In this document: in pieces, positions 5,252 through 35,915 of the stretch
Position numbering within the stretch: the stretch's first letter is position 1
Layout: each line of letters starts with the position of its first letter
Origin: Desulfobacterales bacterium
GTDB lineage: Bacteria > Desulfobacterota > Desulfobacteria > Desulfobacterales > 4be13
Length of the DNA: 35,915 nt
Direction: 5' to 3'
NCBI GenBank assembly: GCA_029940115.1
Contig: JAOZRQ010000004.1
Location: 1-35,915, forward strand
Position numbers and translations under genes: made by a program
Notes under the pieces: generated by a model
What the model was told of the DNA's origin: nothing
Seen by the model: the letters and a program-made list of their open reading frames with translations, nothing else
Database searches by the model: none

Positions 5252-6236
5252 ACGCTTCCTCGGCCTCTTTTTGCAAAAGATGGGGCATCCCCATGTATCT
5301 CGGGGAGAAATGAAAAGGGGTGAACTGTTTCACCCGTGCCCCGGCCGCGAGCTGGCCAGCCTGTCGAGCCGTGAGATGACATTTCTCCTTGGCGGTTTCT
5401 CTCTCTTTTTCAAGAAACGCGGCCTCAATGAACAGATGATCCGAATTTTCGGCAAGTCCGATGATCTTTTCGGCATTCGGTTCGCTGAAGAGAACATCTG
5501 TGATATAGGTGATTTTCTGCCCCGGGCTGATCATGGCGATCTGTTCAGCAAGTTCTCTTAGAACAAATCTCCGTGTTTCACCTTTTCCCAGTCGGACCTC
5601 ATAAGTCGAATCGGGATCCTGGCCGTCAAACAGGGCCTGTTTGAACTCCCTGAGCCAGGGACCCACATCAAGCCCGAGAGCGACCACGCGCTCCTTTATG
5701 ATGTTGACATGAAACTGTTCCCTGATGCTGAATCCGAGGCATGGAATGCCGTGATCAAGAATGGCTGTGGAAACAGACAAGGAGGGTTCCTCCAGCAAAA
5801 TGCCAGGGAATCCGTTTACGATAGTCTCCTCGGTGGGACGGAATCGGTTCCGGCATGGATATCGCCTTGAAATCAGGCGGTCCGGACGCACCTCGGTGAC
5901 ATGGAATGCAAACCGGTTGCTGTAATTTTCCACAAGGTTCCATGAGTATCCGGCAAGCTTTCCCTCCACATTTTTCAGAAAGCCCTCGGGACCGTATAGG
6001 GATATGATTTTTTCCCGGCCGAGGAGCAGGCGCAACAATCTGTCAAACCCCGCAAAATGGTCCATATGCGTATGCGTGACAAATGCATGGCTGATCTTGA
6101 GTATGTTCCGGGGGGAGAGCATGTGAATGTCACCCAGATCAAACATGAACGCACGTTTTTCAAAAAGAAAGGGGATGAACAGGCCAGGATCATCAAAAGG
6201 GCCGTTGACCATCCCGGGATGAAAGGAAGGACGCAT
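5145..6236 (-). CDS. MBL-fold metallo-hydrolase (RNase Z-like subgroup)
   Basis: The HxHxDH motif 'THTHMDH' is present. N-terminus MRPSFHPGMVNGPFDDPGLFIPFLFEKRAFMFDLGD is typical of this subgroup. I chose the internal ATG at 6236 over the track start at 6296. The 3' tail overlaps the cyclase start by 107 nt. Confidence 0.8.
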   Translation of the reverse strand: MRPSFHPGMVNGPFDDPGLFIPFLFEKRAFMFDLGDIHMLSPRNILKISHAFVTHTHMDHFAGFDRLLRLLLGREKIISLYGPEGFLKNVEGKLAGYSWNLVENYSNRFAFHVTEVRPDRLISRRYPCRNRFRPTEETIVNGFPGILLEEPSLSVSTAILDHGIPCLGFSIREQFHVNIIKERVVALGLDVGPWLREFKQALFDGQDPDSTYEVRLGKGETRRFVLRELAEQIAMISPGQKITYITDVLFSEPNAEKIIGLAENSDHLFIEAAFLEKERETAKEKCHLTARQAGQLAAGARVKQFTPFHFSPRYMGMPHLLQKEAEEAYAEIHPTKKTALFFRDPGADSAGSCWQKPDSHHSG

Positions 6237-6327
6237 TTTTTTCAAGCTCTCGGTTTTAAGTGTTTGATTTGACAGTTGACAGCTGACACCCACCAATCAT
6301 GGGATCTCACCCATGTGAACCTTCAGC

Positions 6328-6760
6328 TGTCATTCCCGCGAAAGCGGGGATCCACTATTGCCAAAACTGTCATTCCCGCTTGCGCGGGAATGACAGGCAC
6401 AGTGGGTTCCCGCTTTCGCGGGAATGACAGGCACAGTGGGGGTTCCCGCTTTCGCGGGAATGACAGGCACAGTGGGGTTCCCGCTTTCGCGGGAATGACA
6501 GGCACAGTGGATTCCCGCTTTCGCGGGAATGACAGGCACAGTGGATTCCCGCTTGCGCGGGAATGACGGGCATACAGCAATTCATAAGTTCGTCACCCCT
6601 TCCGCCGGATTGCCAAATCCGGCGGCTCGGTGCCAATCCGAGCCGAGCGAGGGGTACGAACTTACAAAGTGGTGTAGCAGGTTCCCGCTTACGCGGGAAT
6701 GACAGTGGGTTCGCGGGAATGACAGGCACAGTGAATTCCCGCTTGCGCGGGAATGACATC
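6328..6760. repeat. Tandem array of a hairpin unit of about 35 bp (TTCCCGC-ttyc-GCGGGAA-TGACAGGCACAGTGG), interrupted by a compound nested hairpin at 6586-6672
   Basis: 'ttcccgc' cores start at 6333, 6373, 6407, 6443, 6478, 6512 and 6546, a spacing of 34-40 nt. More copies lie at 6682-6760. The units abut directly with no unique spacers. The inner segment contains 'ccgccggattgccaaatccggcgg' and 'ctcggtgccaatccgag' hairpins, which recur at 22241-22289. Confidence 0.9.
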
Positions 6761-6882
6761 TTGATGATAGGTTGTTTTTGGCATCCTTCAAAAAAGTTGG
6801 AAAAGTATCTGCCCGGCACGAGCAGGGACAAAGTGTAAACTCAGCAGACCTGAAAGGACAAGGAAACCCGCTCTGTCCGAGA

Positions 6883-7016
6883 ACGTGAACTTGAACATGA
6901 ACATTCATTTGCGGGCAAGTTCAAGCACAAGTTCAGGTTCAGGTTCAAGTATAAGTTCACGTTCAAGTTCAAGTTCACGTTCACGTTCATGGCTCCCCAA
7001 ATCCATTATTAATCAG
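6883..7016. mobile_element. Partial MITE-like element (hexamer-stem family). The right terminus is present and degenerate; the left terminus is missing.
   Basis: GTGAAC/TTGAAC hexamers, then a 'cattcatttgcgggc' loop, then GTTCAA/GTTCAC hexamers, then 'ggctccccaaatccattattaatcag'. This last segment resembles the right end 'ggcctcccctaaatccgttataatcag' of the copies at 18192 and 18844. Confidence 0.6.
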
Positions 7017-11518: not shown

Positions 11519-12187
11519 ATGACAAATCCCAAAAACGGAGACGCTGTGGAAAAAACCCGGATCATGCCTGAAGAACTCACACCCGGGAACCCCTCCACTG
11601 ACATTCTCGATGAGATTTTGAACCTGTATCCCGGGGGAAAGCAGACCACCCTTGTCAAAACATTGCTCAATCTGGTGTCAACTGCCTCAAAAATTGCCTC
11701 AAAAACCGGTGAAATTCCTTCAAAAGTGGGAAAAACGCTATTCACCTCCCCCGAACAGGATAGAATGTTGCAGGAAGCCGGGGCCTCATTAAGGGATATC
11801 CGGGAAGTGGCTGGCCTGACCGTGAAGGAACTGAGCCAATCCCTCCGATTGCCAGATCAGTCCCTGCTGACCGCGGTGGAAAACGGAACCGCCACCCTCT
11901 CCTTTGAACTCGTCTTGCGACTTGCGGCATTGCTCGCGCGGCATGATCCCCTCCCTTTCATCATCCGATACACCCGGACATACAATCCTGACCTATGGGC
12001 GGTTCTGGAAGATTGGGGGGTGGGGAGGCTACCCATTCACATTGAGCGGGAGCGGCAGTTCATCAATATTTACCGGAGCCGGGATTCGGCAAGAAAACTC
12101 TCCGACGAGGCATTCCAGCAGGTTCTGAAATTCACCCAAGCCGCGTTTGAAATGGCATTGGCATTTGCCACGGAACGTGAAGCGTGA
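11519..12187 (+). CDS. XRE-type helix-turn-helix domain protein
   Basis: An HTH-like segment LRDIREVAGLTVKELSQSLRLPDQSLLTAVENGTATLSFELVLRLAALL is present. An RBS 'ggagaggggg' precedes the ATG. The final codons and the stop lie in the heptamer array. Confidence 0.65.
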   Translation: MTNPKNGDAVEKTRIMPEELTPGNPSTDILDEILNLYPGGKQTTLVKTLLNLVSTASKIASKTGEIPSKVGKTLFTSPEQDRMLQEAGASLRDIREVAGLTVKELSQSLRLPDQSLLTAVENGTATLSFELVLRLAALLARHDPLPFIIRYTRTYNPDLWAVLEDWGVGRLPIHIERERQFINIYRSRDSARKLSDEAFQQVLKFTQAAFEMALAFATEREA

Positions 12188-12340
12188 AACGTGAAGCGTG
12201 AAGCGTGAAGCGTGAAAACTTGGAATACCTACTACGTCTCACGCATCACGGGTCACGCATCACGCATCACGAGTCACGCATCACGGGTCACGCATCACGA
12301 GTCACGCATCACGAGTCACGCATCACGAGTCACGCATCAC
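12174..12340. repeat. Inverted pair of heptamer arrays: (CGTGAAG)n, a spacer, then (nnnTCAC)n
   Basis: 'acgtgaagcgtgaaacgtgaagcgtgaagcgtgaagcgtgaaaac', then a 19-nt spacer, then about 15 heptamers of GCATCAC/GAGTCAC/GGGTCAC. The array ends 20 nt before the ATG at 12361. Confidence 0.9.
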
Positions 12341-12360
12341 GTTAGGAGCAAAAAATAGCC

Positions 12361-13935: not shown

Positions 13936-14397
13936 ATGAGAAGAAAAGAGAAAGAGATGACGGACAGGGCCGAAATCGAATCCGTCATCAGAAAGTCACG
14001 GGTCTGCCGGCTGGGACTGGCAGATGAGGGATATCCGTATGTGGTCCCATTATGCTTCGGATATGACGGAAATGCGTTCTATTTTCATTCTGCGAAAGCG
14101 GGCAGAAAAATTGACATGCTCAGAAAAAACAACAGGGTCTGTTTCGAGTTTGACATTGAGCAGGAGACAAAGCCGGCTGAAAAGGCGTGTAAGTGGGGAA
14201 TGGCATACAAGAGCGTGATCGGGTTCGGGGAGGCATCGTTTGTGGAAGATACGGACGCAAAGCGCAACGCCTTGGATATCATCATGCGACAATATTCGGC
14301 AGATGTGCGGCAGTTTGAATATTCGGAAGCCGCATTGAGGGGAACAGTGATTATAAGGATTGATATTCAGGAGATCACGGGGAAAGCTGATGCGTGA
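13936..14397 (+). CDS. Pyridoxamine 5'-phosphate oxidase family (FMN-binding split-barrel) protein
   Basis: RVCRLGLADEGYPYVVPLCFGYDGNAFYFHSAKAGRKIDMLRKNNRVCFEFD is typical of the family. An alternative ATG is at 13957. Confidence 0.8.
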   Translation: MRRKEKEMTDRAEIESVIRKSRVCRLGLADEGYPYVVPLCFGYDGNAFYFHSAKAGRKIDMLRKNNRVCFEFDIEQETKPAEKACKWGMAYKSVIGFGEASFVEDTDAKRNALDIIMRQYSADVRQFEYSEAALRGTVIIRIDIQEITGKADA

Positions 14398-14445
14398 TGG
14401 GTGAATTCACGTTTCACGTCTCACATTTCACGCCTCACGTTTCAG
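14392..14445. repeat. Palindromic heptamer block (GTGAnnn / nnnTCAC) between the PNPOx stop and the hisI RBS
   Basis: 'gcgtgatgggtgaattcacgtttcacgtctcacatttcacgcctcacgtttcag' is centred on 'gtgaattcac'. Confidence 0.8.
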
Positions 14446-18843: not shown

Positions 18844-19011
18844 CTGATTATAACGCTTTTCGGGGAGGCCGCCTGCCCGTGAACGTGCACGTGAACGTGA
18901 ACTTGAACGTGAATGTTCATTTGTGGGCAAGTTCGAGTTCAAGTATAAGTTCACGTTCAAGTTCACGTTCAAGTTCGAGTTCAAGGCCTCCCCTAAATCC
19001 GTTATAATCAG
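18844..19011. mobile_element. MITE-like element (CTGATTATAACG termini, GTGAAC/GTTCAC hexamer stem) with an 8-bp flanking direct repeat
   Basis: Termini are 'ctgattataacgcttttcggggaggcc' and 'ggcctcccctaaatccgttataatcag': 12 matching bases, a 6-nt mismatch block, then 9 matching bases. The flanks 18836-18843 and 19012-19019 are both 'cctttttt'. The interior is (GTGAAC)n, a loop, then (GTTCAn)n. Confidence 0.85.
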
Positions 19012-21135: not shown

Positions 21136-21258
21136 CTGATTATAACGCTTTTCGGAGAGGCCGCCCTGCCCATGAACGTGAACTTGAACGTGAATGTGAA
21201 TGTTCATTTGTGGGCAAGTTCAAGTATAAGTTCACGTTCACGTTCAATGCCTCCCCTT
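21136..21258. mobile_element. Truncated MITE-like element (hexamer-stem family). The left terminus is intact; the right terminus is lost next to the regulator stop codon.
   Basis: 'ctgattataacgcttttcggagaggcc', then GTGAAC-type hexamers, a loop, GTTCAC-type hexamers and 'gcctcccct'. The 'aaatccgttataatcag' end is absent. Confidence 0.7.
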
Positions 21259-22289: not shown

Positions 22290-22699
22290 CGGGCGTGGGC
22301 CGGGATGTTGTTTGGTCATGGTTCCTTGGCAATGGTCCTGATTCTAACGGATTTTGTGTTTGCATGTGGTCACGATCCTGGAAGCCGGTCTGGGGACAGC
22401 CTGCCGCAACAATCCCCACAAACCGTGGATGGACGCTGACGAGCCTCGGCACACAGGCCATCCGCGTTCATCCGCGGATCACCATTCTCAGCTCATGTCG
22501 GAAACCACAAAAACCGTCAGAACCAAGTTCATTCAGAAAAAAGCCGGGTTTCTGGCCGAGGTGGGACACCGCAAAAGGCCGGTGTCAGCCCACAGATTGA
22601 TATTTTTTTGTTGGCCCATGTTCACTTACTTGAATAGAGGAACAGAACAAGGAAATCAATGGGGTGGGGGGAGTATTGAAAGGTGGGAATATCCTACCT

Positions 22700-22838
22700 G
22701 AAGGATGAAGTTTGAAGGATGAAGGATGAGGGATGAAGTTTGAAGGATGAAGTTTGAAGGATGAAGTTTGAAGGATGAGGGATGAAGTTTGAGGGATGAA
22801 GTTTGAAGGATGAAGGATGAGGGGTGAAGTTTGAAGAT
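22700..22838. repeat. Heptamer tandem array (GAAGGAT/GAAGTTT/GAGGGAT), about 20 units
   Basis: A direct read shows strict 7-nt periodicity. A short inverted counterpart 'catcatccttcacctttcaccttc' lies at 22934-22957, next to the regulator stop. Confidence 0.9.
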
Positions 22839-22957
22839 GACTTTGGAAAGAACAGGGGGAACTTTCCGACCTTTTTCCAAGTTGATTTGAGGAGTCATTC
22901 GCCATTAATCAGGATATCCCAAAAGATAGAACGCATCATCCTTCACCTTTCACCTTC

Positions 22958-23647: not shown

Positions 23648-23965
23648 CAAACTCACAAAACTCACAAAACTCACAAAACTCACAAAACTCACAAAACTCT
23701 CAAAACTCAAAAACTCTCAAAACTCTCAAAACTCTCAAAACTCTCAAAACTCTCAAAACTCACAAAACTCAAAAACTCACAAAACTCAAAAACTCACAAA
23801 ACTCTCAAAACTCAAAAACTCATAAAACTCACAAAACTCACAAAACTCTCAAAACTCACAAAACTCACAAAACTCTCAAAACTCTCAAAACTCTCAAAAC
23901 TCTCAAAACTCATAAAACTCTCAAAACTCAAAAACTCTCAAAACTCTCAAAACTCTCAAAACTCC
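23648..23965. repeat. Nonamer tandem array (ACTCACAAA/ACTCTCAAA with occasional 8-nt ACTCAAAA units), about 35 units, filling the kinase-regulator spacer
   Basis: The direct read is continuous from just upstream of the regulator RBS to 2 nt before the kinase stop codon (23968-23970). It translates as KTH/KLS/NSQ or SFV repeats in the open frames. Confidence 0.95.
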
Positions 23966-26938: not shown

Positions 26939-26986
26939 GAGGATGAAGAATGAAGTTTGAAGAATGAAAGATGAAAGGAAACGCAG

Positions 26987-27764: not shown

Positions 27765-27826
27765 CAACTTACAGCTCACAGCTCACAGCTCACAACTTAC
27801 AGCTCACAACTCACAACTTACAGATT
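27765..27826. repeat. Heptamer array (TTACAGC/TCACAGC/TCACAAC) just upstream of the helicase start
   Basis: Direct read: 'aacttacagctcacagctcacagctcacaacttacagctcacaactcacaacttacag'. Confidence 0.85.
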
Positions 27827-27837
27827 ACCGCTTGATT

Positions 27838-29997
27838 ATGCACAGAAAAGATGCCACGCGGCGCACCCCATACAGAAGAACCCGCAAAAAAAAGGCCGAG
27901 GCCCCCAAGATACCCAAAATCAGACCCGGTGCCCATCCCGAACTGAAAAAGGTCTTCGGGACCGTCGGCATACCGGAGAAGACGGCTTTCACCCCTGATC
28001 CCTTCCAGATGGCCGCGGTCGAAGCCGTTGAGAAGGGGGACTGCCTCGTCACCGCACCGACCGGGGCCGGCAAGACCTGGATCGCGGAACAGGCCATCGC
28101 CCGAATCCGGGAAAAAGGGGGGAGATCCTGGTACGCGTCCCCCCTCAAAGCCCTGAGCAACTCGAAATACGCCGAGTTCTGCGAGATATTCGGCGTCAAC
28201 AACGTCGGCATTCTCACCGGCGACCGAAAGGAGAAACCCCGAGCGTCCCTGATCGTCGGAACCACGGAAATCCTGCGCAATCAGCTCTATGACGCCATGA
28301 GCCGCGGGGAGGACCTCGCGGCCGACTTCGTCATCCTCGACGAGGCCCATTTCCTCGGAGACCCCGACAGGGGCGTGGTATGGGAGGAAATCATGATCTA
28401 CCTCCCCGCCCGCATCCCCCTCCTCATGCTTTCGGCAACCATCGGAAACGCGGACCAGATCGCCGGCTGGCTCTCGGAAATGCGGGAAAAGGAATGCATC
28501 GTGGTCCAGGAGACCTGCCGACCCGTGCCCCTGTATCCGATATTCTTCCACCCTTCGGGTACCCTGCTCCCTCTCCTCTCGGAGAGCGACGAGGAGACCC
28601 AAAGCTCTCCCCGACATCCTTCATCTCGGGGGTCTCGGGGAAAGGCATCGGGGAAGCTCCACAAGAAGGTCGACGCGCACATCACCGACAAGAACCCCTC
28701 CGTGCTCGCCGCGGACCGGAGCCTGCCCCCCCTCGGCAGAATACTCGAGGTGCTGAAGTCCTTCCACCTGACCCCCGCCATCTTCTTTCTCAAGTCACGG
28801 GCCGACTGCGACCATGCCCTCAGCCTCTGCAAGACCCCTCCCCCGGATGACGACCGGAAGCAGAGGCGCAGCCTGAGAATCCGGGATCTCGCCTCGCAAA
28901 GCGGGCACATCGCCAACCATCGCCACCTCTGGGAGATCGAGAACCTCGCGGCCGCATCCCATCACAGCGGTCAGCTCCCCGCGTGGAAGCTCGTGATCGA
29001 GTCCCTCATGACCGATGGCCTCCTCGACGTGGTCTTCGCCACCTCCACCGTGGCCGCGGGTGTCAACTTCCCGGCCCGCACCATCGTGTTCCTCAACTCG
29101 GACCGGTTCAACGGCAAGGAGTTTCTCCCCCTCAGTCCCACCGAGTTTCATCAGATGACCGGAAGGGCCGGCCGCCGAGGGATGGACAAGATCGGCTTTG
29201 CGGTCGCCATTCCGGGAAGATTCATGGATGTCCGTCTCATCGCCCGGCTCACCAGCGCCTCCCCCTCCCATGTGTTGAGCCAGATCAAGATCAACTTCTC
29301 CATGGTGCTGAACCTGCTCCTCTCCCACTCTCCGGACCAGATTGAGGAGATCCTGAAAAAATCCTTTGCCACTTATATGATCGTGAAGGGGAAGCGCACC
29401 CGCAAGGCCCAGCGCCTCATCGGAAACGAGCACAGGCTCCTCTGGCAGAACTTCCTCAACCACTTCCACTTCCTCCGGGAGTCCGGATATGTCACCGAGG
29501 CCGGCGATCTCACCCCTGACGGCGTCTGGGCCTCCCAGCTTCGGGTGGATCAGCCCTTGATGATCGCCGAGGGGTTCCGGCTCGGCGTCTTTCCCGACGC
29601 GGACCCCGCCCTCCTTGCTGCCGTGATCGCCTCCCTCGTGAACGAGGAGGAGTCCAACGACCGGATCCCCAAGCGGCAGATTCCCGATGCCCTGCTCAGG
29701 ACCATGCTCCATGTCCGAAAGGGGCTCAGACCCTTTGCCAAGCAGATGATCCTGAATGGTTTCGAGCCACGGGTCCTCTTCCTCCGCCCTGCCCTCACCC
29801 TATACGCGTGGGCCATGGGGTCTGAATGGGAGGATCTGCTCGCGTTTTCCGAAATGGCCGAAGGGAACCTCGCCATGCTCATCTTTCGCACCGCCGACAA
29901 CCTCAGACACATCCGGGCCCTCGACCATGTGTTCCCAAAAGCCGCCGCCACCGCCGCCCGAGTCATCGAACAGATCATCCGGGACCCGGTCATCTGA
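27838..29997 (+). CDS. Ski2-like (HelY/Mtr4-type) DExH-box SF2 helicase with a basic N-terminal extension
   Basis: Motif I is TAPTGAGKTWIAE, motif II is ILDEAHFLGD, motif III is LSATIGN and motif VI is HQMTGRAGRRGMD. The C-terminal region has the Ski2 arch/DSHCT-like length. ATG at 27838 is preferred over the TTG at 27832. No obvious RBS. Confidence 0.85.
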   Translation: MHRKDATRRTPYRRTRKKKAEAPKIPKIRPGAHPELKKVFGTVGIPEKTAFTPDPFQMAAVEAVEKGDCLVTAPTGAGKTWIAEQAIARIREKGGRSWYASPLKALSNSKYAEFCEIFGVNNVGILTGDRKEKPRASLIVGTTEILRNQLYDAMSRGEDLAADFVILDEAHFLGDPDRGVVWEEIMIYLPARIPLLMLSATIGNADQIAGWLSEMREKECIVVQETCRPVPLYPIFFHPSGTLLPLLSESDEETQSSPRHPSSRGSRGKASGKLHKKVDAHITDKNPSVLAADRSLPPLGRILEVLKSFHLTPAIFFLKSRADCDHALSLCKTPPPDDDRKQRRSLRIRDLASQSGHIANHRHLWEIENLAAASHHSGQLPAWKLVIESLMTDGLLDVVFATSTVAAGVNFPARTIVFLNSDRFNGKEFLPLSPTEFHQMTGRAGRRGMDKIGFAVAIPGRFMDVRLIARLTSASPSHVLSQIKINFSMVLNLLLSHSPDQIEEILKKSFATYMIVKGKRTRKAQRLIGNEHRLLWQNFLNHFHFLRESGYVTEAGDLTPDGVWASQLRVDQPLMIAEGFRLGVFPDADPALLAAVIASLVNEEESNDRIPKRQIPDALLRTMLHVRKGLRPFAKQMILNGFEPRVLFLRPALTLYAWAMGSEWEDLLAFSEMAEGNLAMLIFRTADNLRHIRALDHVFPKAAATAARVIEQIIRDPVI

Positions 29998-30078
29998 AGG
30001 ATTAAGGGCTAAGGGCTAAGGGATTAAGGGTTAATCCCTAACCCCTTAACCCTTCATCCCTAACCCCTTAATCCTTCT
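29998..30078. repeat. Inverted heptamer arrays, (TAAGGGC)n and (TAACCCC)n, forming a hairpin between two convergent genes
   Basis: 'attaagggctaagggctaagggattaagggttaatccctaaccccttaacccttcatccctaaccccttaatcc'. The central stem 'agggattaa' / 'ttaatccct' has 9 bp. The right arm encodes the last residues (..KGLGMKG) and the stop of the 30046 gene. Confidence 0.85.
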
Positions 30079-31965: not shown

Positions 31966-32063
31966 GATATGAAGGATGAAGGATGAAGTCTGAAGTCTGA
32001 AGGATGAAGTCTTCATCACTCATCCCTCATCTCTCATCCCTCATCCTTTCCTTTCGCCCGTTG
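31966..32063. repeat. Inverted heptamer arrays (GAAGGAT/GAAGTCT versus TCATCCC/TCATCTC) filling the spacer between the McrB-like and McrC-like genes
   Basis: 'gatatgaaggatgaaggatgaagtctgaagtctgaaggatgaagtcttcatcactcatccctcatctctcatccctcatcc' is centred on 'gaagtcttc'. Confidence 0.85.
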
Positions 32064-34469
32064 TCAGCTGAAAAATGAGTAAGAGTTGTGAGTCTGTTTC
32101 CCGGCCTCAATAATGCGGCGGAGAATCCTCGCGGAGCGATAGAGGGAGTTGTCGGTGGTCACCTCCAAGAGCTTCTCGAGCCGCCTGCCAAACCCGGTTC
32201 CGTATCCCTCGATCATCGGAAGGATGAACTGGGCCGTCGCGAAGTCAATCGCCTGGTCATTGACAAGGATGTCCCTCGCAATCGTGCAGTAACGTCTGAT
32301 GGCATAGTATTTCCTCGGACTGATCACCACAAAGGACGCGCCATCAAAGTCGGACGTCTCGGTCTGGAGAATCTCGATGATCTCCTTCACGATCTCCGCC
32401 TCCTTGCTCGCAAAATCCTCCTCATCGGAACCCGCGAAGAATGCCTGCATCCTCTCAAAGAGAAGCGCCCCGTCGGGCCTCATCCGGTTGCTGCTCAACG
32501 GATTCGAATACTCATAGCTCGGCTCCATCTGGATCACCGGAACCCGGTCGATCAGTCGGGGGGAGAGCCGCTCGGTGGTGTTGTCGTTGTTCACCGTGCC
32601 AATGAACCGCACAGATGGGCCGACATGGAGGAACCGATCCTTGTCGAGACAGCCGGTGTCGAGGTTCCGCTCCCCCTCGGGATCGCACATCCCGAGAAAG
32701 TCGGCCCAATAATGCTCAATTGGCGACAGGTTCGCCTCGTCGAGCAGCACCCAGCGGGAAAACCGGCCGACCTGCGGGTCGGTCCGGGTGAGATGGAGAA
32801 AGTCGTACAACCCGGTCCTCGCCTTCTGATATTGGCTCCGAAGCGGATTGAAATACCCGAGTATGTCCCGCTGGGACGTCCACCCCCGGGAGACCGGGAT
32901 TTTGAGCAGATTCTCCGAATTCCCCAATGCCTCCCCGAGATAATGGATCACCGACGTCTTGCCAGTGCCCGGCGGGCCGGCGAGTATGGTCAGAAAGCTC
33001 TGCTGCATGCAGATCAGCAGGTTGGCGATCTCGTCCGATGTGTAGTTTCTCCCGCACTGCTCCACCAGATATTCCCGGATTTTGTCCACAAAGTCCTTCC
33101 GATTCCCGTCAAACTCCCTCACCGCAGGCATGGCGACACCTGACTCGCCATCATCCCTCTCCTCCAATGTGTAGCTGCCGTTGAGCAGGTCCAAATACGT
33201 CTTGATCTCCGTGAGCCTCTCTTTGATGTCCTCTGCCTTCAGTCTCTTTATCTCGGTCTCGATCTTCTTCTTGTTCAGCTTCATGAATTCAATCTCTTTG
33301 TACAGGTTCTCCGCCTGTATCAGCTTCCCGATTCTCTCCTCCAACGCCCGGAGTTCCCGGGTGCGCTCCTCCTCATATCGCGTCTTCTCCTCCTTCTTCC
33401 TCTTGTCGAGCTCCTCGATCTCCCGGTTGAGCTGGTCCTTCTGGGCCCGGAGGAAATAGAGCTCCCGCCTGATCTTCACCGCCTCCTTCTCGGCCCTTTC
33501 CTCTATGTGCTTCAGATGATCCTTGAAAAACTTCTCCTTGTTGTCCTGCAAATACTGCTCCACAATCACGCGGCCCTCGGTCTCGTTGGTCAGGAAGTTG
33601 TTGATGAACGAGGCCTGCTGCACACCGGCCTCGAGTATCTTCGGCATCAGGCGGATCAGCCGGTCCCTCCGCTCCTGATCCATGCCGGTGAGGTGCTTCA
33701 GGTTTTTGATCGCCTCAAGCCACTCGGTCACGGTCTTCCGATTCAGTTTCGCTGTCCCGGATCGGAGCAGATACTTGTTCCCCCATGTCACCAGCCGGTC
33801 GTCGGAGATGTAGTCCTGCTGCTCATACGCCGCCGCCTTCAGCAGGTTGGTGTTGAACAGATACGCGACCGGCGGCCGGCTCAGGCTGCTTTTCAGGGTC
33901 TCGAACTCGATGATGTAGTGTCGCACCTCCTCGGTCCTCACCTTGAACACATGGTCGGGCCGGAGTCCGAGCAACGGCGACTGGGCCGCACTCAGCCGGA
34001 TCCCCTCGTCATCCTTTGTCCATTCAAACGGGCCATAGATGCTTGTGCCGTCGTTGACAAAGACCGAACGGTTCGGCAGGGGCCCCCCGGAACTCAGATA
34101 GGGCCGCTCCACGTCCGGCAACGGCTCCTTGATGATGGGACAGAGCTCGAATCGCTTCAGCGCCTCCGCATCCGATCCCCTCATCCAGTATTTCTCAAGA
34201 TAGTCGTTCTCTATGTATGCCTCATTCTCATCCGCACTGTAGCGGTTCACCCGGAAAAACTCATGGTCGGAAAACCGCCGGTCTATCGCCTCGTATTCGC
34301 TCGACACCCAAATCCGGCCGTTGTTCGGAAAATCGCAACGATCCGCCGGGGCATACGTGCTGTTCTCCAACTCATGGGCTATGGGTATCACAAACCCGCC
34401 GCTCGTTGAGATGGGACGGTCCTTCAACGCCAGCAAGGGCTTGAACTCATTCATCTTCGTTCTCTCCAT
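32064..34469 (-). CDS. McrB-like AAA+ (AAA_5) NTPase with a long N-terminal coiled coil and an unassigned N-terminal domain
   Basis: Walker A is ILAGPPGTGKTS (about 32953-32980) and Walker B is WVLLDEANLSPIEHYWADFL (about 32729-32750). 'RFIGTVNNDNTTERLSPRLIDRV' (about 32560-32610) is also present. The preceding K/E/R-rich heptad region runs from EERAEKEAVKIRRELYFLRAQKDQLNREIEELDKRKKEEKTRYEEERTRELRALEERIGKL to IKERLTEIKTYLDLL (about 33185-33510). ATG at 34469 has 'ggaga' 8 nt upstream. An alternative ATG is at 34454. The track start at 34538 lies in repeats. Confidence 0.8.
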   Translation of the reverse strand: MERTKMNEFKPLLALKDRPISTSGGFVIPIAHELENSTYAPADRCDFPNNGRIWVSSEYEAIDRRFSDHEFFRVNRYSADENEAYIENDYLEKYWMRGSDAEALKRFELCPIIKEPLPDVERPYLSSGGPLPNRSVFVNDGTSIYGPFEWTKDDEGIRLSAAQSPLLGLRPDHVFKVRTEEVRHYIIEFETLKSSLSRPPVAYLFNTNLLKAAAYEQQDYISDDRLVTWGNKYLLRSGTAKLNRKTVTEWLEAIKNLKHLTGMDQERRDRLIRLMPKILEAGVQQASFINNFLTNETEGRVIVEQYLQDNKEKFFKDHLKHIEERAEKEAVKIRRELYFLRAQKDQLNREIEELDKRKKEEKTRYEEERTRELRALEERIGKLIQAENLYKEIEFMKLNKKKIETEIKRLKAEDIKERLTEIKTYLDLLNGSYTLEERDDGESGVAMPAVREFDGNRKDFVDKIREYLVEQCGRNYTSDEIANLLICMQQSFLTILAGPPGTGKTSVIHYLGEALGNSENLLKIPVSRGWTSQRDILGYFNPLRSQYQKARTGLYDFLHLTRTDPQVGRFSRWVLLDEANLSPIEHYWADFLGMCDPEGERNLDTGCLDKDRFLHVGPSVRFIGTVNNDNTTERLSPRLIDRVPVIQMEPSYEYSNPLSSNRMRPDGALLFERMQAFFAGSDEEDFASKEAEIVKEIIEILQTETSDFDGASFVVISPRKYYAIRRYCTIARDILVNDQAIDFATAQFILPMIEGYGTGFGRRLEKLLEVTTDNSLYRSARILRRIIEAGKQTHNSYSFFS

Positions 34470-34486: not shown

Positions 34487-34670
34487 TTGAAGGATGAAGG
34501 GATGAAGGATGAAGGATGAAGGATCCTTCACATTTCATCCTTCATCCTTCATATTTCATCCTTCACATTTCATCCTTCACATTTCATCCTTCATCCTTCA
34601 TATTTCATCCTTCATATTTCATCCTTCATATTTCATCCTTCACATTTCATCCTTCATATTTCATCCTTCT
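34487..34670. repeat. Inverted heptamer arrays: (GAAGGAT)n for 37 bp, then about 21 units of TCATCCT/TCACATT/TCATATT
   Basis: The palindromic centre is 'gaaggatccttc' at about 34515-34528. The right arm runs to 34670 and encodes the last residues (EKDEI) and the stop of the 34654 gene. Confidence 0.9.
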
Positions 34671-35355
34671 CATCAGATGCCTTGTAGATATCAATGATCT
34701 TGGTGCTTTCGATATAGTCACGGGTCTCATATTTGGTGATCCGCATCAGTTTCTTGGTGATCCTTCCCATCTTGTCTATCTGATCCTTGATTATTGAAAT
34801 GTATTCATATCGGGGATCATCCATGGTCATGTCATCCATCAGGAGCTGGGAAAACCCGAGCACGGACTGCATCGGCTGGTTGAGCTCATGGCAGACTGCG
34901 CCCGCCATTTCAAGAACCCCCTCAAGCTTCTCCTCCTCAAGCAACTTCCTCGTCAGCTCCTGTTGCGTCAGGGCCGACTTGATTCTTGCAAGCAATTCCA
35001 CTTTGTTGACCGGCTTTCTCACATAATCGGTTCCACCTGCCTCAAAGGCCTCCTGCAATGTGTGGTCATCGGTGTTCGCCGTGACAAAGACAACCGGGAT
35101 GTCCTTTGTCTCGGGCTTGCCACGAAGAATTCGGCAAACCTCATACCCGTCCATTTCGGGCATCATGATGTCGAGCAGAATCAGATCCGGAATCCCGCAC
35201 ATGTCCGTCCTTGACGTGGCGATCTCAAGGGCCTCGGATCCGCTCACGGCAACGCTGATCTCGTAAGTGCCGGCCAGTATCTCCACCAGCACCCGGATGT
35301 TCGCGGGCGCGTCGTCAACGATGAGAATGTTTGGCCTTTTCAAATTTTCACCCAT
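34654..35355 (-). CDS. Response-regulator receiver fused to a HisKA-like (DHp) domain, with no catalytic ATPase domain
   Basis: Receiver motifs: ILIVDDAPANIRVL, DLILLDIMMPEMDGYEV and DYVRKPV. The C-terminal H-box-like segment is MAGAVCHELNQPMQSVLGFSQLL. ATG at 35355 has the RBS 'ggaagga'. The track start at 35481 reads through GGGCAC repeats (GHGVGHGHGQGHG). Confidence 0.85.
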   Translation of the reverse strand: MGENLKRPNILIVDDAPANIRVLVEILAGTYEISVAVSGSEALEIATSRTDMCGIPDLILLDIMMPEMDGYEVCRILRGKPETKDIPVVFVTANTDDHTLQEAFEAGGTDYVRKPVNKVELLARIKSALTQQELTRKLLEEEKLEGVLEMAGAVCHELNQPMQSVLGFSQLLMDDMTMDDPRYEYISIIKDQIDKMGRITKKLMRITKYETRDYIESTKIIDIYKASDEKDEI

Positions 35356-35359
35356 TTTT

Positions 35360-35477
35360 CCTTCCCCGTGCCCCTGCCCGTGCCCGTGCCCGACCCCGTG
35401 CCCTGCCCCTGCCCGGTGTCGGGCAGAGGCAGGGGCACAGGCAAGGGCAGGGGAAAGGGCACGGGCAAGGGGCACGG
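35360..35477. repeat. Long imperfect palindrome of CGTGCCC/GGGCACG-type repeats between the STAS and receiver-DHp genes
   Basis: 'ccccgtgcccctgcccgtgcccgtgcccgaccccgtgccctgcccctgcccg', loop 'gtgt', then 'cgggcagaggcaggggcacaggcaagggcaggggaaagggcacgggcaaggggcacgg'. Confidence 0.85.
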
Positions 35478-35795: not shown

Positions 35796-35915
35796 GTTTG
35801 GAAGGGTGAAGGGTCCATTTCATCCTTCATCCTTCACGTTTCATCCTTCACGTTTCATCCTTGATCCTTCACGTTTCATCCTTCACGTTTCATCCTTCAC
35901 GTTTCATCCTTCACG
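35796..35915. repeat. Heptamer array (TCATCCT/TCACGTT) upstream of the STAS gene, running off the window edge
   Basis: Direct read: 'catttcatccttcatccttcacgtttcatccttcacgtttcatcc...' with 7-nt periodicity. Confidence 0.9.

Follow-up and report, generated by a model that had tools for sequence, protein, structure and literature searches.

The window, the whole 35,915-nt stretch of DNA considered here, is contig C710 of a Desulfobacterales draft genome (G000; 7.2 Mb, 951 contigs, 52.6% G+C, ~54% complete). At positions 34487-34673, the spacer between a receiver-HisKA gene and a McrB/CnuB-like gene is filled by seven-nucleotide units repeated in tandem, first in one orientation and then in the other. 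This locus raises the question of what such arrays are, how they come to lie between genes, and whether they serve the genes beside them or are simply tolerated. Records of heptamer repeats in bacteria go back to 1990, but to our knowledge no origin or role is generally accepted.

The element consists of two arms of unequal length, listed here with the genes on either side:

34654 to 35343, minus strand: upstream gene, receiver and HisKA domains (Pfam)
34525 to 34673, minus strand: long 5' arm, ~10 copies of a 14-nt double unit made of two GAAGGAT-type heptamers (TRF periods 14, 28 and 49)
34487 to 34524, minus strand: short 3' arm, 5 copies of TCCTTCA in the gene sense (TRF)
32064 to 34469, minus strand: downstream gene, McrB/CnuB-like AAA+ protein (Pfam AAA_5 and gene call), given as context outside the repeat

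The repeat starts within the last six codons of the receiver-HisKA gene, its first 17 nt encoding the final codons and the stop (34654-34656), and the short arm ends 13 nt ahead of a GGAGA that is followed by the McrB/CnuB-like ATG (34469 or 34472). RNA folding paired the short arm with the loop-proximal portion of the long arm, at −51.9 kcal/mol for the whole RNA (z −5.7). The transcript would carry ~100 nt of purine-rich repeats and then an imperfect stem of 30-36 bp that stops 13 nt short of the ribosome-binding site of the downstream gene, and a change in copy number would alter the length of the spacer, the length of the stem and the C-terminus of the upstream protein. Intrinsic termination was rejected: no array hairpin with a T-tail was flagged, and the focal stem is followed by AAAAAAC. 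Because T-tails are absent, the hairpins should act in some way other than termination. By analogy with the stems of IVS in rRNA, they probably act on mRNA processing or stability, and array stems would be likely sites for RNase III or other processing, or 3'-end stabilizers, uncoupling adjacent cistrons.

The focal pair is one of many arrays in the window. An earlier note, made from the sequence alone, had listed a series of 7-nt arrays, and TRF recovered a period-7 array at every site that it named (TRF coordinates 12176-12216, 12239-12341, 14406-14444, 22699-22840 with 20 copies, 26943-26975, 27765-27823, 29997-30077, 31969-32009, 32013-32046, 34488-34524, 34523-34673 and 35818-35915). Hexamer arrays (18878-18985, 6881-6989 and 21173-21246) and those of GGGCAC type (35365-35475), which the note also mentioned, were found as well. 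The periodicity had been called strict, which is somewhat too strong a word: matches range from 67 to 95% and some arrays contain indels. Super-periods of 14, 21, 28 and 49 nt occur within the window arrays, and five of the window spacers fold as long hairpins (z −5 to −10). Assembled from TRF, sequence and fold, the elements beyond the focal one are:

6881 to 6989 and 21173 to 21246: further copies or fragments of the hexamer MITE
12176 to 12341, plus strand: inverted pair, (CGTGAAG)6, a 22-nt loop, then (TCACGCA/TCACGAG)15 (TRF, sequence, fold); runs from the stop of an HTH gene to 19 nt ahead of a receiver-SpoIIE ATG; −59.5 kcal/mol, z −6.4
14392 to 14445, plus strand: short array of TTCACGT type and a weak partner, separating two small co-directional genes; z −2.1
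18878 to 18985, no strand assigned: arms of the hexamer MITE, CGTGAA then CAAGTT (TRF)
22699 to 22840, minus strand: TCCTTCA-type array (gene sense), 20 copies, in a 1-kb spacer between two NarL-type regulators; a short GAAGGTG-type partner lies ~110 nt upstream
26943 to 26975, plus strand: short GATGAAG-type array, 11 nt ahead of a ParA-like ATG
27765 to 27823, plus strand: direct-only ACAGCTC-type array between the ParA-like and helicase genes; no hairpin (fold z +0.4)
29997 to 30077, no strand assigned: inverted pair, TAAGGGN then NCCCTTA, in a convergent spacer, overlapping the helicase and CnuC-like stop codons; fold z −5.6
31966 to 32063, minus strand: inverted heptamer pair, GGATGAG-type then TCATCCT-type units (TRF, sequence), occupying the entire spacer from the CnuB-like stop to the CnuC-like start; −41.9 kcal/mol, z −5.0
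35356 to 35477, minus strand: inverted 6-nt GC-rich pair, CCCGTG-type then GGGCAC-type (TRF, sequence, fold), in the spacer between the STAS gene and the receiver gene; terminal sequence GGAAGGAAAAATG; −101 kcal/mol, z −9.9
35796 to 35915, minus strand: GAAGGAT and GAAACGT double-unit array upstream of the STAS gene, running off the contig end

The genes that flank these arrays are of every kind and have no function in common (Pfam). Two repeats of other periods also lie in the window. A 316-bp array of 36 copies of the 9-mer AAACTCACA (23649-23964) fills the spacer between a histidine kinase and a NarL-type regulator and overlaps the longest ORF of the latter, and at 6373-6572 a 34-nt unit with an internal palindrome (TTCCCGC...GCGGGAA) is repeated six times in tandem. 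The latter is not a CRISPR array, as spacers are absent.

To place the window in its genome, tandem arrays were called with TRF across all of G000. The tandem repeats form 7,066 clusters covering 316 kb, or 4.4% of the genome, and period 7 is the commonest class (2,388 of the 7,066 clusters; 111 kb, ~1.5% of the genome). Period-7 arrays of at least 3 copies number 1,902 in 7.2 Mb against ~7 expected by chance, the chance level being set by a third-order Markov simulation that yielded 3 such arrays per 3 Mb; the density, ~260-264 per Mb, is ~260 times above that level. They are built from 380 canonical heptamer units, led by AAGGATG (202 arrays) and followed by AAGCTGT, AACCCTT, ACGCCTC and ACGCATC. 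With these top units and an rpoB that falls within Desulfobacterales (65% identity to named MAGs and 70-72% to G001-G004, the four other genomes of the same GTDB family), the arrays are not cyanobacterial STRRs in the strict sense. The core TCAC/GTGA or TCAT/ATGA, said in the earlier note to be shared by many units, occurs in 36.5% of arrays and in 10.2% of composition-matched random heptamers, a 3.6-fold enrichment.

Repeats of this kind in a fragmented draft could be mis-assembled or chimeric joins of low-complexity sequence, and 378 of 1,836 heptamer arrays in G000 do sit at contig ends, among them the array at 35796-35915 of the window. Most arrays, though, lie within contigs, where the coding flanks are unique and reading frames continue intact through the array, and arrays are also present in four independent assemblies and in the single-contig, finished genome of G001 (8.03 Mb). 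Given the finished genome and the intact frames, we reject an assembly artefact as the source of the arrays and hold it to be exceedingly improbable. The heptamer arrays are a main cause of the fragmentation of the G000 assembly. Since they end contigs, array lengths in the draft may be wrong or underestimates.

According to the earlier note, arrays mark most gene boundaries. This is true of the window, where 13 of 23 junctions carry one if hexamers are counted (10 of 23 for heptamer arrays of at least 3 copies alone), but not of the genome, where 6- and 7-mer arrays are found at 34-36% of junctions. The genome-wide repeat scan that it proposed did reveal enrichment between genes: 71% of array bases lie within the non-coding 23% of G000, a fraction that is only approximate because genes were called with a purpose-made dicodon caller (5,285 genes, 77% coding), which reproduced the Pfam-supported genes of the window. 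Arrays are equally frequent at co-directional, convergent and divergent junctions, and the per-base load in divergent, promoter-bearing spacers (4.1%) is half that in the others (9.2-9.6%). Within co-directional spacers, 25% of arrays start no later than the upstream stop codon and one third end 0-30 nt ahead of the next start; arrays that abut stops are as numerous as those that abut starts. Subtracting the array leaves a spacer of 135 nt, similar to the 151 nt of array-free spacers, indicating that arrays are additions and not replacements.

The position of so many arrays just ahead of start codons could be taken to reflect a regulatory network, in which each unit family would be an RNA or DNA platform bound by its own protein (such as a PF05635 pentamer or a Csp/S1-like protein) and the number of copies would adjust how the neighboring genes are translated or how stable their mRNA is. 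Such a network would also fit the enriched core, the strand bias of some units relative to gene direction (GAGGCGT 42:8, AAACTTG 22:5, AAGGATG 60:34) and the arms that stay complementary around PF05635 genes, described below, and it has precedent in published proposals and reporter effects for Beggiatoaceae TAACTGA and Nostoc heptamers (PMC4679880; bioRxiv 10.1101/2022.06.06.494920). It is difficult to reconcile with 380 unit types, with equal frequencies at 5' ends, 3' ends and convergent junctions, with arrays inside the ORFs of unrelated genes, with flanking genes that have no function in common, and with orthologous junctions at which neither the units nor the presence of an array is conserved. 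We regard a dedicated network of this kind as quite unlikely.

Arrays are also present within genes. Deep inside called genes of G000 lie 374 arrays of at least 3 copies, 354 of them with a unit that is stop-free in the sense; for comparison, 41% of intergenic units contain a stop on a given strand. About 20% of heptamer arrays in G000 are in frame within genes, where, because three units equal seven codons, they are read as heptapeptide repeats. Hosts verified by Pfam include a PKS, with the array between its methyltransferase and KR domains, HypF, with the array between the YrdC-like and Kae1-like domains, CheA, with the array between Hpt and the dimerization domain, a RimK-like protein and a TPR protein. 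Linker arrays reach 36 copies (G000 loci L127-L134, on contigs C155, C507, C895, C131, C390, C881 and C288). This is the pattern expected if arrays were seeded everywhere and selection kept the harmless ones. Even RpoB carries array-encoded insertions: in G000 they are encoded by two GC-rich inverted pairs (contig C553, 6641-6692 and 7034-7091, locus L001), and in G004 (locus L124) a 125-nt array, translated as repeated QTSDIED, occupies the same loop as in G000. The RpoB inserts of both genomes lie at loops without a counterpart in other Desulfobacterales. RpoB is 1,470-1,590 aa long in this family and ~1,370 aa in other Desulfobacterales.

The opposed arms of the focal element are not an isolated case. 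Inverted pairing, which the earlier note had remarked on, holds for 12-23% of heptamer arrays genome-wide: 12% have an inverted neighbor called by TRF, and for 23% a reverse-complement 14-mer lies no more than 150 nt away, compared with 0.5% at random places (~45 times). Comparison of heptamer pairs within one unit family revealed no common flanks or loops. Since neither is shared, pairs built from the same unit are not copies of one element, and the absence of conserved ends led us to reject heptamer hairpins as MITEs. The hexamer arrays, which had been grouped with the heptamers as related, do exist but are something different: they form the stems of a MITE that has inverted repeats at its termini and target duplications. 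Paired hexamer arrays are more frequent (37%, with a tight 14-nt gap), and 142 pairs genome-wide (132 oriented pairs) have the termini CTGATTATAACG...CGTTATAATCAG, an 8-9-bp target-site duplication and a conserved 14-nt loop. Alignment of flanks showed that arm length varies between MITE copies from 20 to 157 nt, indirect evidence from sequence comparison that arms may change length after insertion.

All four other genomes of the family are array-rich, with units that are partly different: in G001 a 400-kb sample yielded 130-177 arrays per Mb, again biased to non-coding DNA and including inverted pairs, and G002-G004 have 126-849 per Mb in small samples. Around 80 rpoB loci of other Desulfobacterales and their neighbors, the density is 18 arrays per Mb, ~14 times below that of G000. 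A single unit common to the whole order was rejected for GAAGGAT, which is essentially confined to G000 (188 matches in G000, 4 in G004 and almost none in 149 other genomes), while AAGGGTT, GATGCTT, GATGTTT and TTTGGTG recur across the family. Nearly every spacer of the G000 rplKAJL-rpoBC operon contains an array; at the rpoB-rpoC spacer, the arrays of G000 and G004 are unrelated to each other, and G001 and G027 lack one. Variation in array length is supported indirectly, by these differing orthologous junctions between genera and by the range of MITE arms. Elsewhere in the phylum, 80 kb of G172 (70% G+C, 4.2 Mb; loci L194-L197) hold arrays at 175 per Mb, among which GACCGAC/TCGGTCG units recur. 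A high density thus also occurs outside the family of G000.

Among the genes next to arrays, one class stands apart. Genes of PF05635, the four-helix-bundle family of the 23S-rRNA-IVS type, are bracketed by matched arrays in 12 of 12 cases in the five genomes of the family: 4 of 4 in G000, each within ~30 nt of a matched unit (two inverted, one direct, one both), and 8 of 8 in G001-G004. One G001 gene lies between 32 copies of a unit and 65 copies of its complement. The unit of the pair at 29997-30077 of the window (TAAGGGN/NCCCTTA) also flanks PF05635 genes in G003. In a set of 30 PF05635 genes, drawn from as many further genomes of the phylum, an array lies within 200 nt on at least one side in 28, on both sides in 19, and with matched units in 17, where 0.15 arrays per flank would be expected from the rest of the locus. 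As background, matched arrays occur at both ends of 19 of 5,285 genes in G000. Together with the strand bias of units, arms whose complementarity persists over a 300-nt gene speak for selection or a directed process and against pure drift. The closest solved structure to the PF05635 protein is 2rld, an uncharacterized four-helix-bundle protein.

These associations allow a more specific proposal: an IVS-type fold-back cassette would, when complete, carry a PF05635 (S23p, Avd-like) gene whose protein helps make, recognize or spread the arms, and the heptamer arrays and hairpins would be relatives of this cassette that lack the cargo. PF05635 ORFs in the loop of an inverted-repeat stem were found elsewhere in the genome and not in the window, in which we found no PF05635 gene. 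An rRNA IVS of the same design was not found in the 23S genes examined: in G001 and G002 they run without interruption and contain no arrays, in G003 they hold group I introns instead, and the 23S gene of G000 is unassembled. The G003 introns (loci L151 and L154; Rfam RF00028, 51-82 bits) interrupt both the 23S and the 16S rRNA genes. The number of PF05635 genes does not track array density and is not supported as its driver, with 11 genes and 12 arrays per Mb in G026 and 4 genes and 264 arrays per Mb in G000. On contig C154 of G000 (5925-6543), a frameshifted PF05635 gene is flanked on both sides by AACTTG hexamer arrays like those that form the MITE stems, a locus that hints at derivation of the MITE from a PF05635-type cassette. 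We put the cassette forward as a tentative and rather doubtful extension. If it is correct, a single element family underlies the 23S rRNA IVS, the spacer hairpins of Desulfobacterales and possibly the cyanobacterial STRRs, and a 35-year-old repeat puzzle gains a testable gene.

The simplest opposing account is that all of this is mutational debris, in which slippage alone generates arrays with no mobile element and no structural role, only harmful insertions are removed, and inverted pairs are accidents of template switching. The distribution over tolerated sites, the diversity of units and their turnover between genera are as this account predicts, and heptamers are the commonest long SSR in many bacteria, as PMC4679880 relates from Mrazek (2007). 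Against it, the hexamer arrays demonstrably travel in a MITE; inverted partners are ~45 times more frequent than at random places; AAGGGTT, GATGCTT, GATGTTT and TTTGGTG are common to several genera; and PF05635 genes are flanked by arrays in 12 of 12 cases within the family and, on at least one side, in 28 of 30 elsewhere, mostly with complementary units. Slippage as the entire explanation strikes us as unlikely.

The account we favor, and consider reasonably probable, is that the heptamer arrays are slippage-prone repeats of the STRR type that have proliferated genome-wide in one Desulfobacterales family, were partly spread by fold-back elements and are kept where tolerated, with hairpins that probably act on mRNA. 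Hundreds of units are in use, the arrays have no conserved ends, spacers are filled up to stop and start codons, arrays within proteins are in frame in permissive linkers and require a unit free of stop codons, and orthologous junctions in related genera have different arrays or none. Slipped-strand mispairing and block duplication would create and resize arrays; inverted partners would come from template switching or arrive with fold-back elements; selection would then purge arrays wherever they are harmful. Loss of mismatch repair as a cause was ruled out, as G000, G001 and G004 all have intact MutS and MutL, and seven-base loops would escape repair despite the presence of both proteins. The enriched TCAC/TCAT core counts against this explanation, because free slippage from random seeds does not predict such a core. 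An origin driven by PF05635 and a dedicated regulatory role are less probable candidates, and the reproducible association of arrays with PF05635 makes the question of origin open to experiment. With a finished 8-Mb genome, a third of junctions occupied and array-encoded insertions in the essential rpoB, the family of G000 is an extreme and tractable case. It also matters to annotators of such genomes, in which arrays break short-read assemblies and produce false ORF extensions and altered C-termini.

How do these arrays compare with known heptamer repeats? STRR heptanucleotides were reportedly described in filamentous, heterocystous cyanobacteria by Mazel and colleagues in 1990. The likeness drawn in the earlier note is sound: as in STRRs and long heptanucleotide SSRs, units of G000 recur in tandem beyond chance, at hundreds of dispersed, mainly intergenic loci with a strong non-coding bias and with several families per genome. 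The differences are the Desulfobacterales host, other units and far more unit types (380), the inverted hairpin pairs, the ~20% of arrays in frame in genes, and the association with PF05635 and a MITE. The inference that a cyanobacterial system is unusual in such a host stands in part. The density is exceptional within Desulfobacterales, and the literature searched contained no papers on heptamer or STRR repeats in Desulfobacterales or Deltaproteobacteria, but heptamer repeats were already known in non-cyanobacterial genomes, among them Xanthomonas (PMC4692102) and Beggiatoaceae (PMC4679880). Mrazek, Guo and Shah (2007), as reported in PMC4679880, found heptamers to be the commonest class of long SSR in many non-cyanobacterial genomes. 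The long SSRs described there (5-11 nt) resemble ours in heptamer dominance, in the non-coding bias of non-triplet units and in slippage as the proposed origin, and Desulfobacterales are absent from the repeat-rich genomes that PMC4679880 names.

Two systems based on single units are closer in position. Xanthomonas GGGAATC and Nostoc PCC 7120 GGGGA(T/C)T (Rehm et al. 2015, PMC4692102) are likewise intergenic, form some inverted stem-loop pairs, and differ in length and sequence between close species at the same junctions. They use one G-rich, quadruplex-prone unit per genome at ~100 loci, whereas G000 has many, mostly non-G-rich units at roughly tenfold more loci or above. Beggiatoaceae TAACTGA (MacGregor 2015, PMC4679880) similarly abuts start codons, including those of ribosomal-protein and RNA-polymerase operons, and CAACTGA of G000 (35 arrays) is one letter from the marine Beggiatoaceae unit; CAACTGA is also present in G002 (L102, 1490-1590) and G003 (L108, 305-380). 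However, TAACTGA is a single unit in 2-6 copies, forward upstream of starts with one inverted case, unlike the arrays of G000, which reach 36 or more copies. With 380 units in both orientations, and stops abutted as often as starts, the arrays do not belong to the TAACTGA type.

The remaining parallels concern structure and expression. The IVS of Coxiella burnetii (Warrier et al. 2016, PMC4990558) combines an S23p ORF with a stem that RNase III cleaves and with heptameric repeats that vary in number between strains, and ORF-bearing 23S rRNA IVS (Coxiella and also Leptospira) share with our cassettes a terminal-inverted-repeat stem and a PF05635-family ORF in the loop. Here, by contrast, the cassettes lie between protein-coding genes, their arms reach 65 copies, the array hairpins have predicted stems of 30-50 bp, and most hairpins, including all those in the window, have no ORF. 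In Haemophilus influenzae, as PMC8262952 and PMC12721329 describe, expression of hmw1A is controlled by heptamer copy number. The 7-nt repeat of hmw1A/hmw2A lies between promoter and start and acts through 5'-UTR structure and RNase III, a mechanism of the kind envisaged in the earlier note. According to the same accounts it is a contingency locus at specific surface-protein genes, unlike the arrays of G000, which occur throughout the genome without association with any gene class. The arrays are thus a known heptamer-repeat phenomenon, present here at unusually high density and tied to the PF05635 family.
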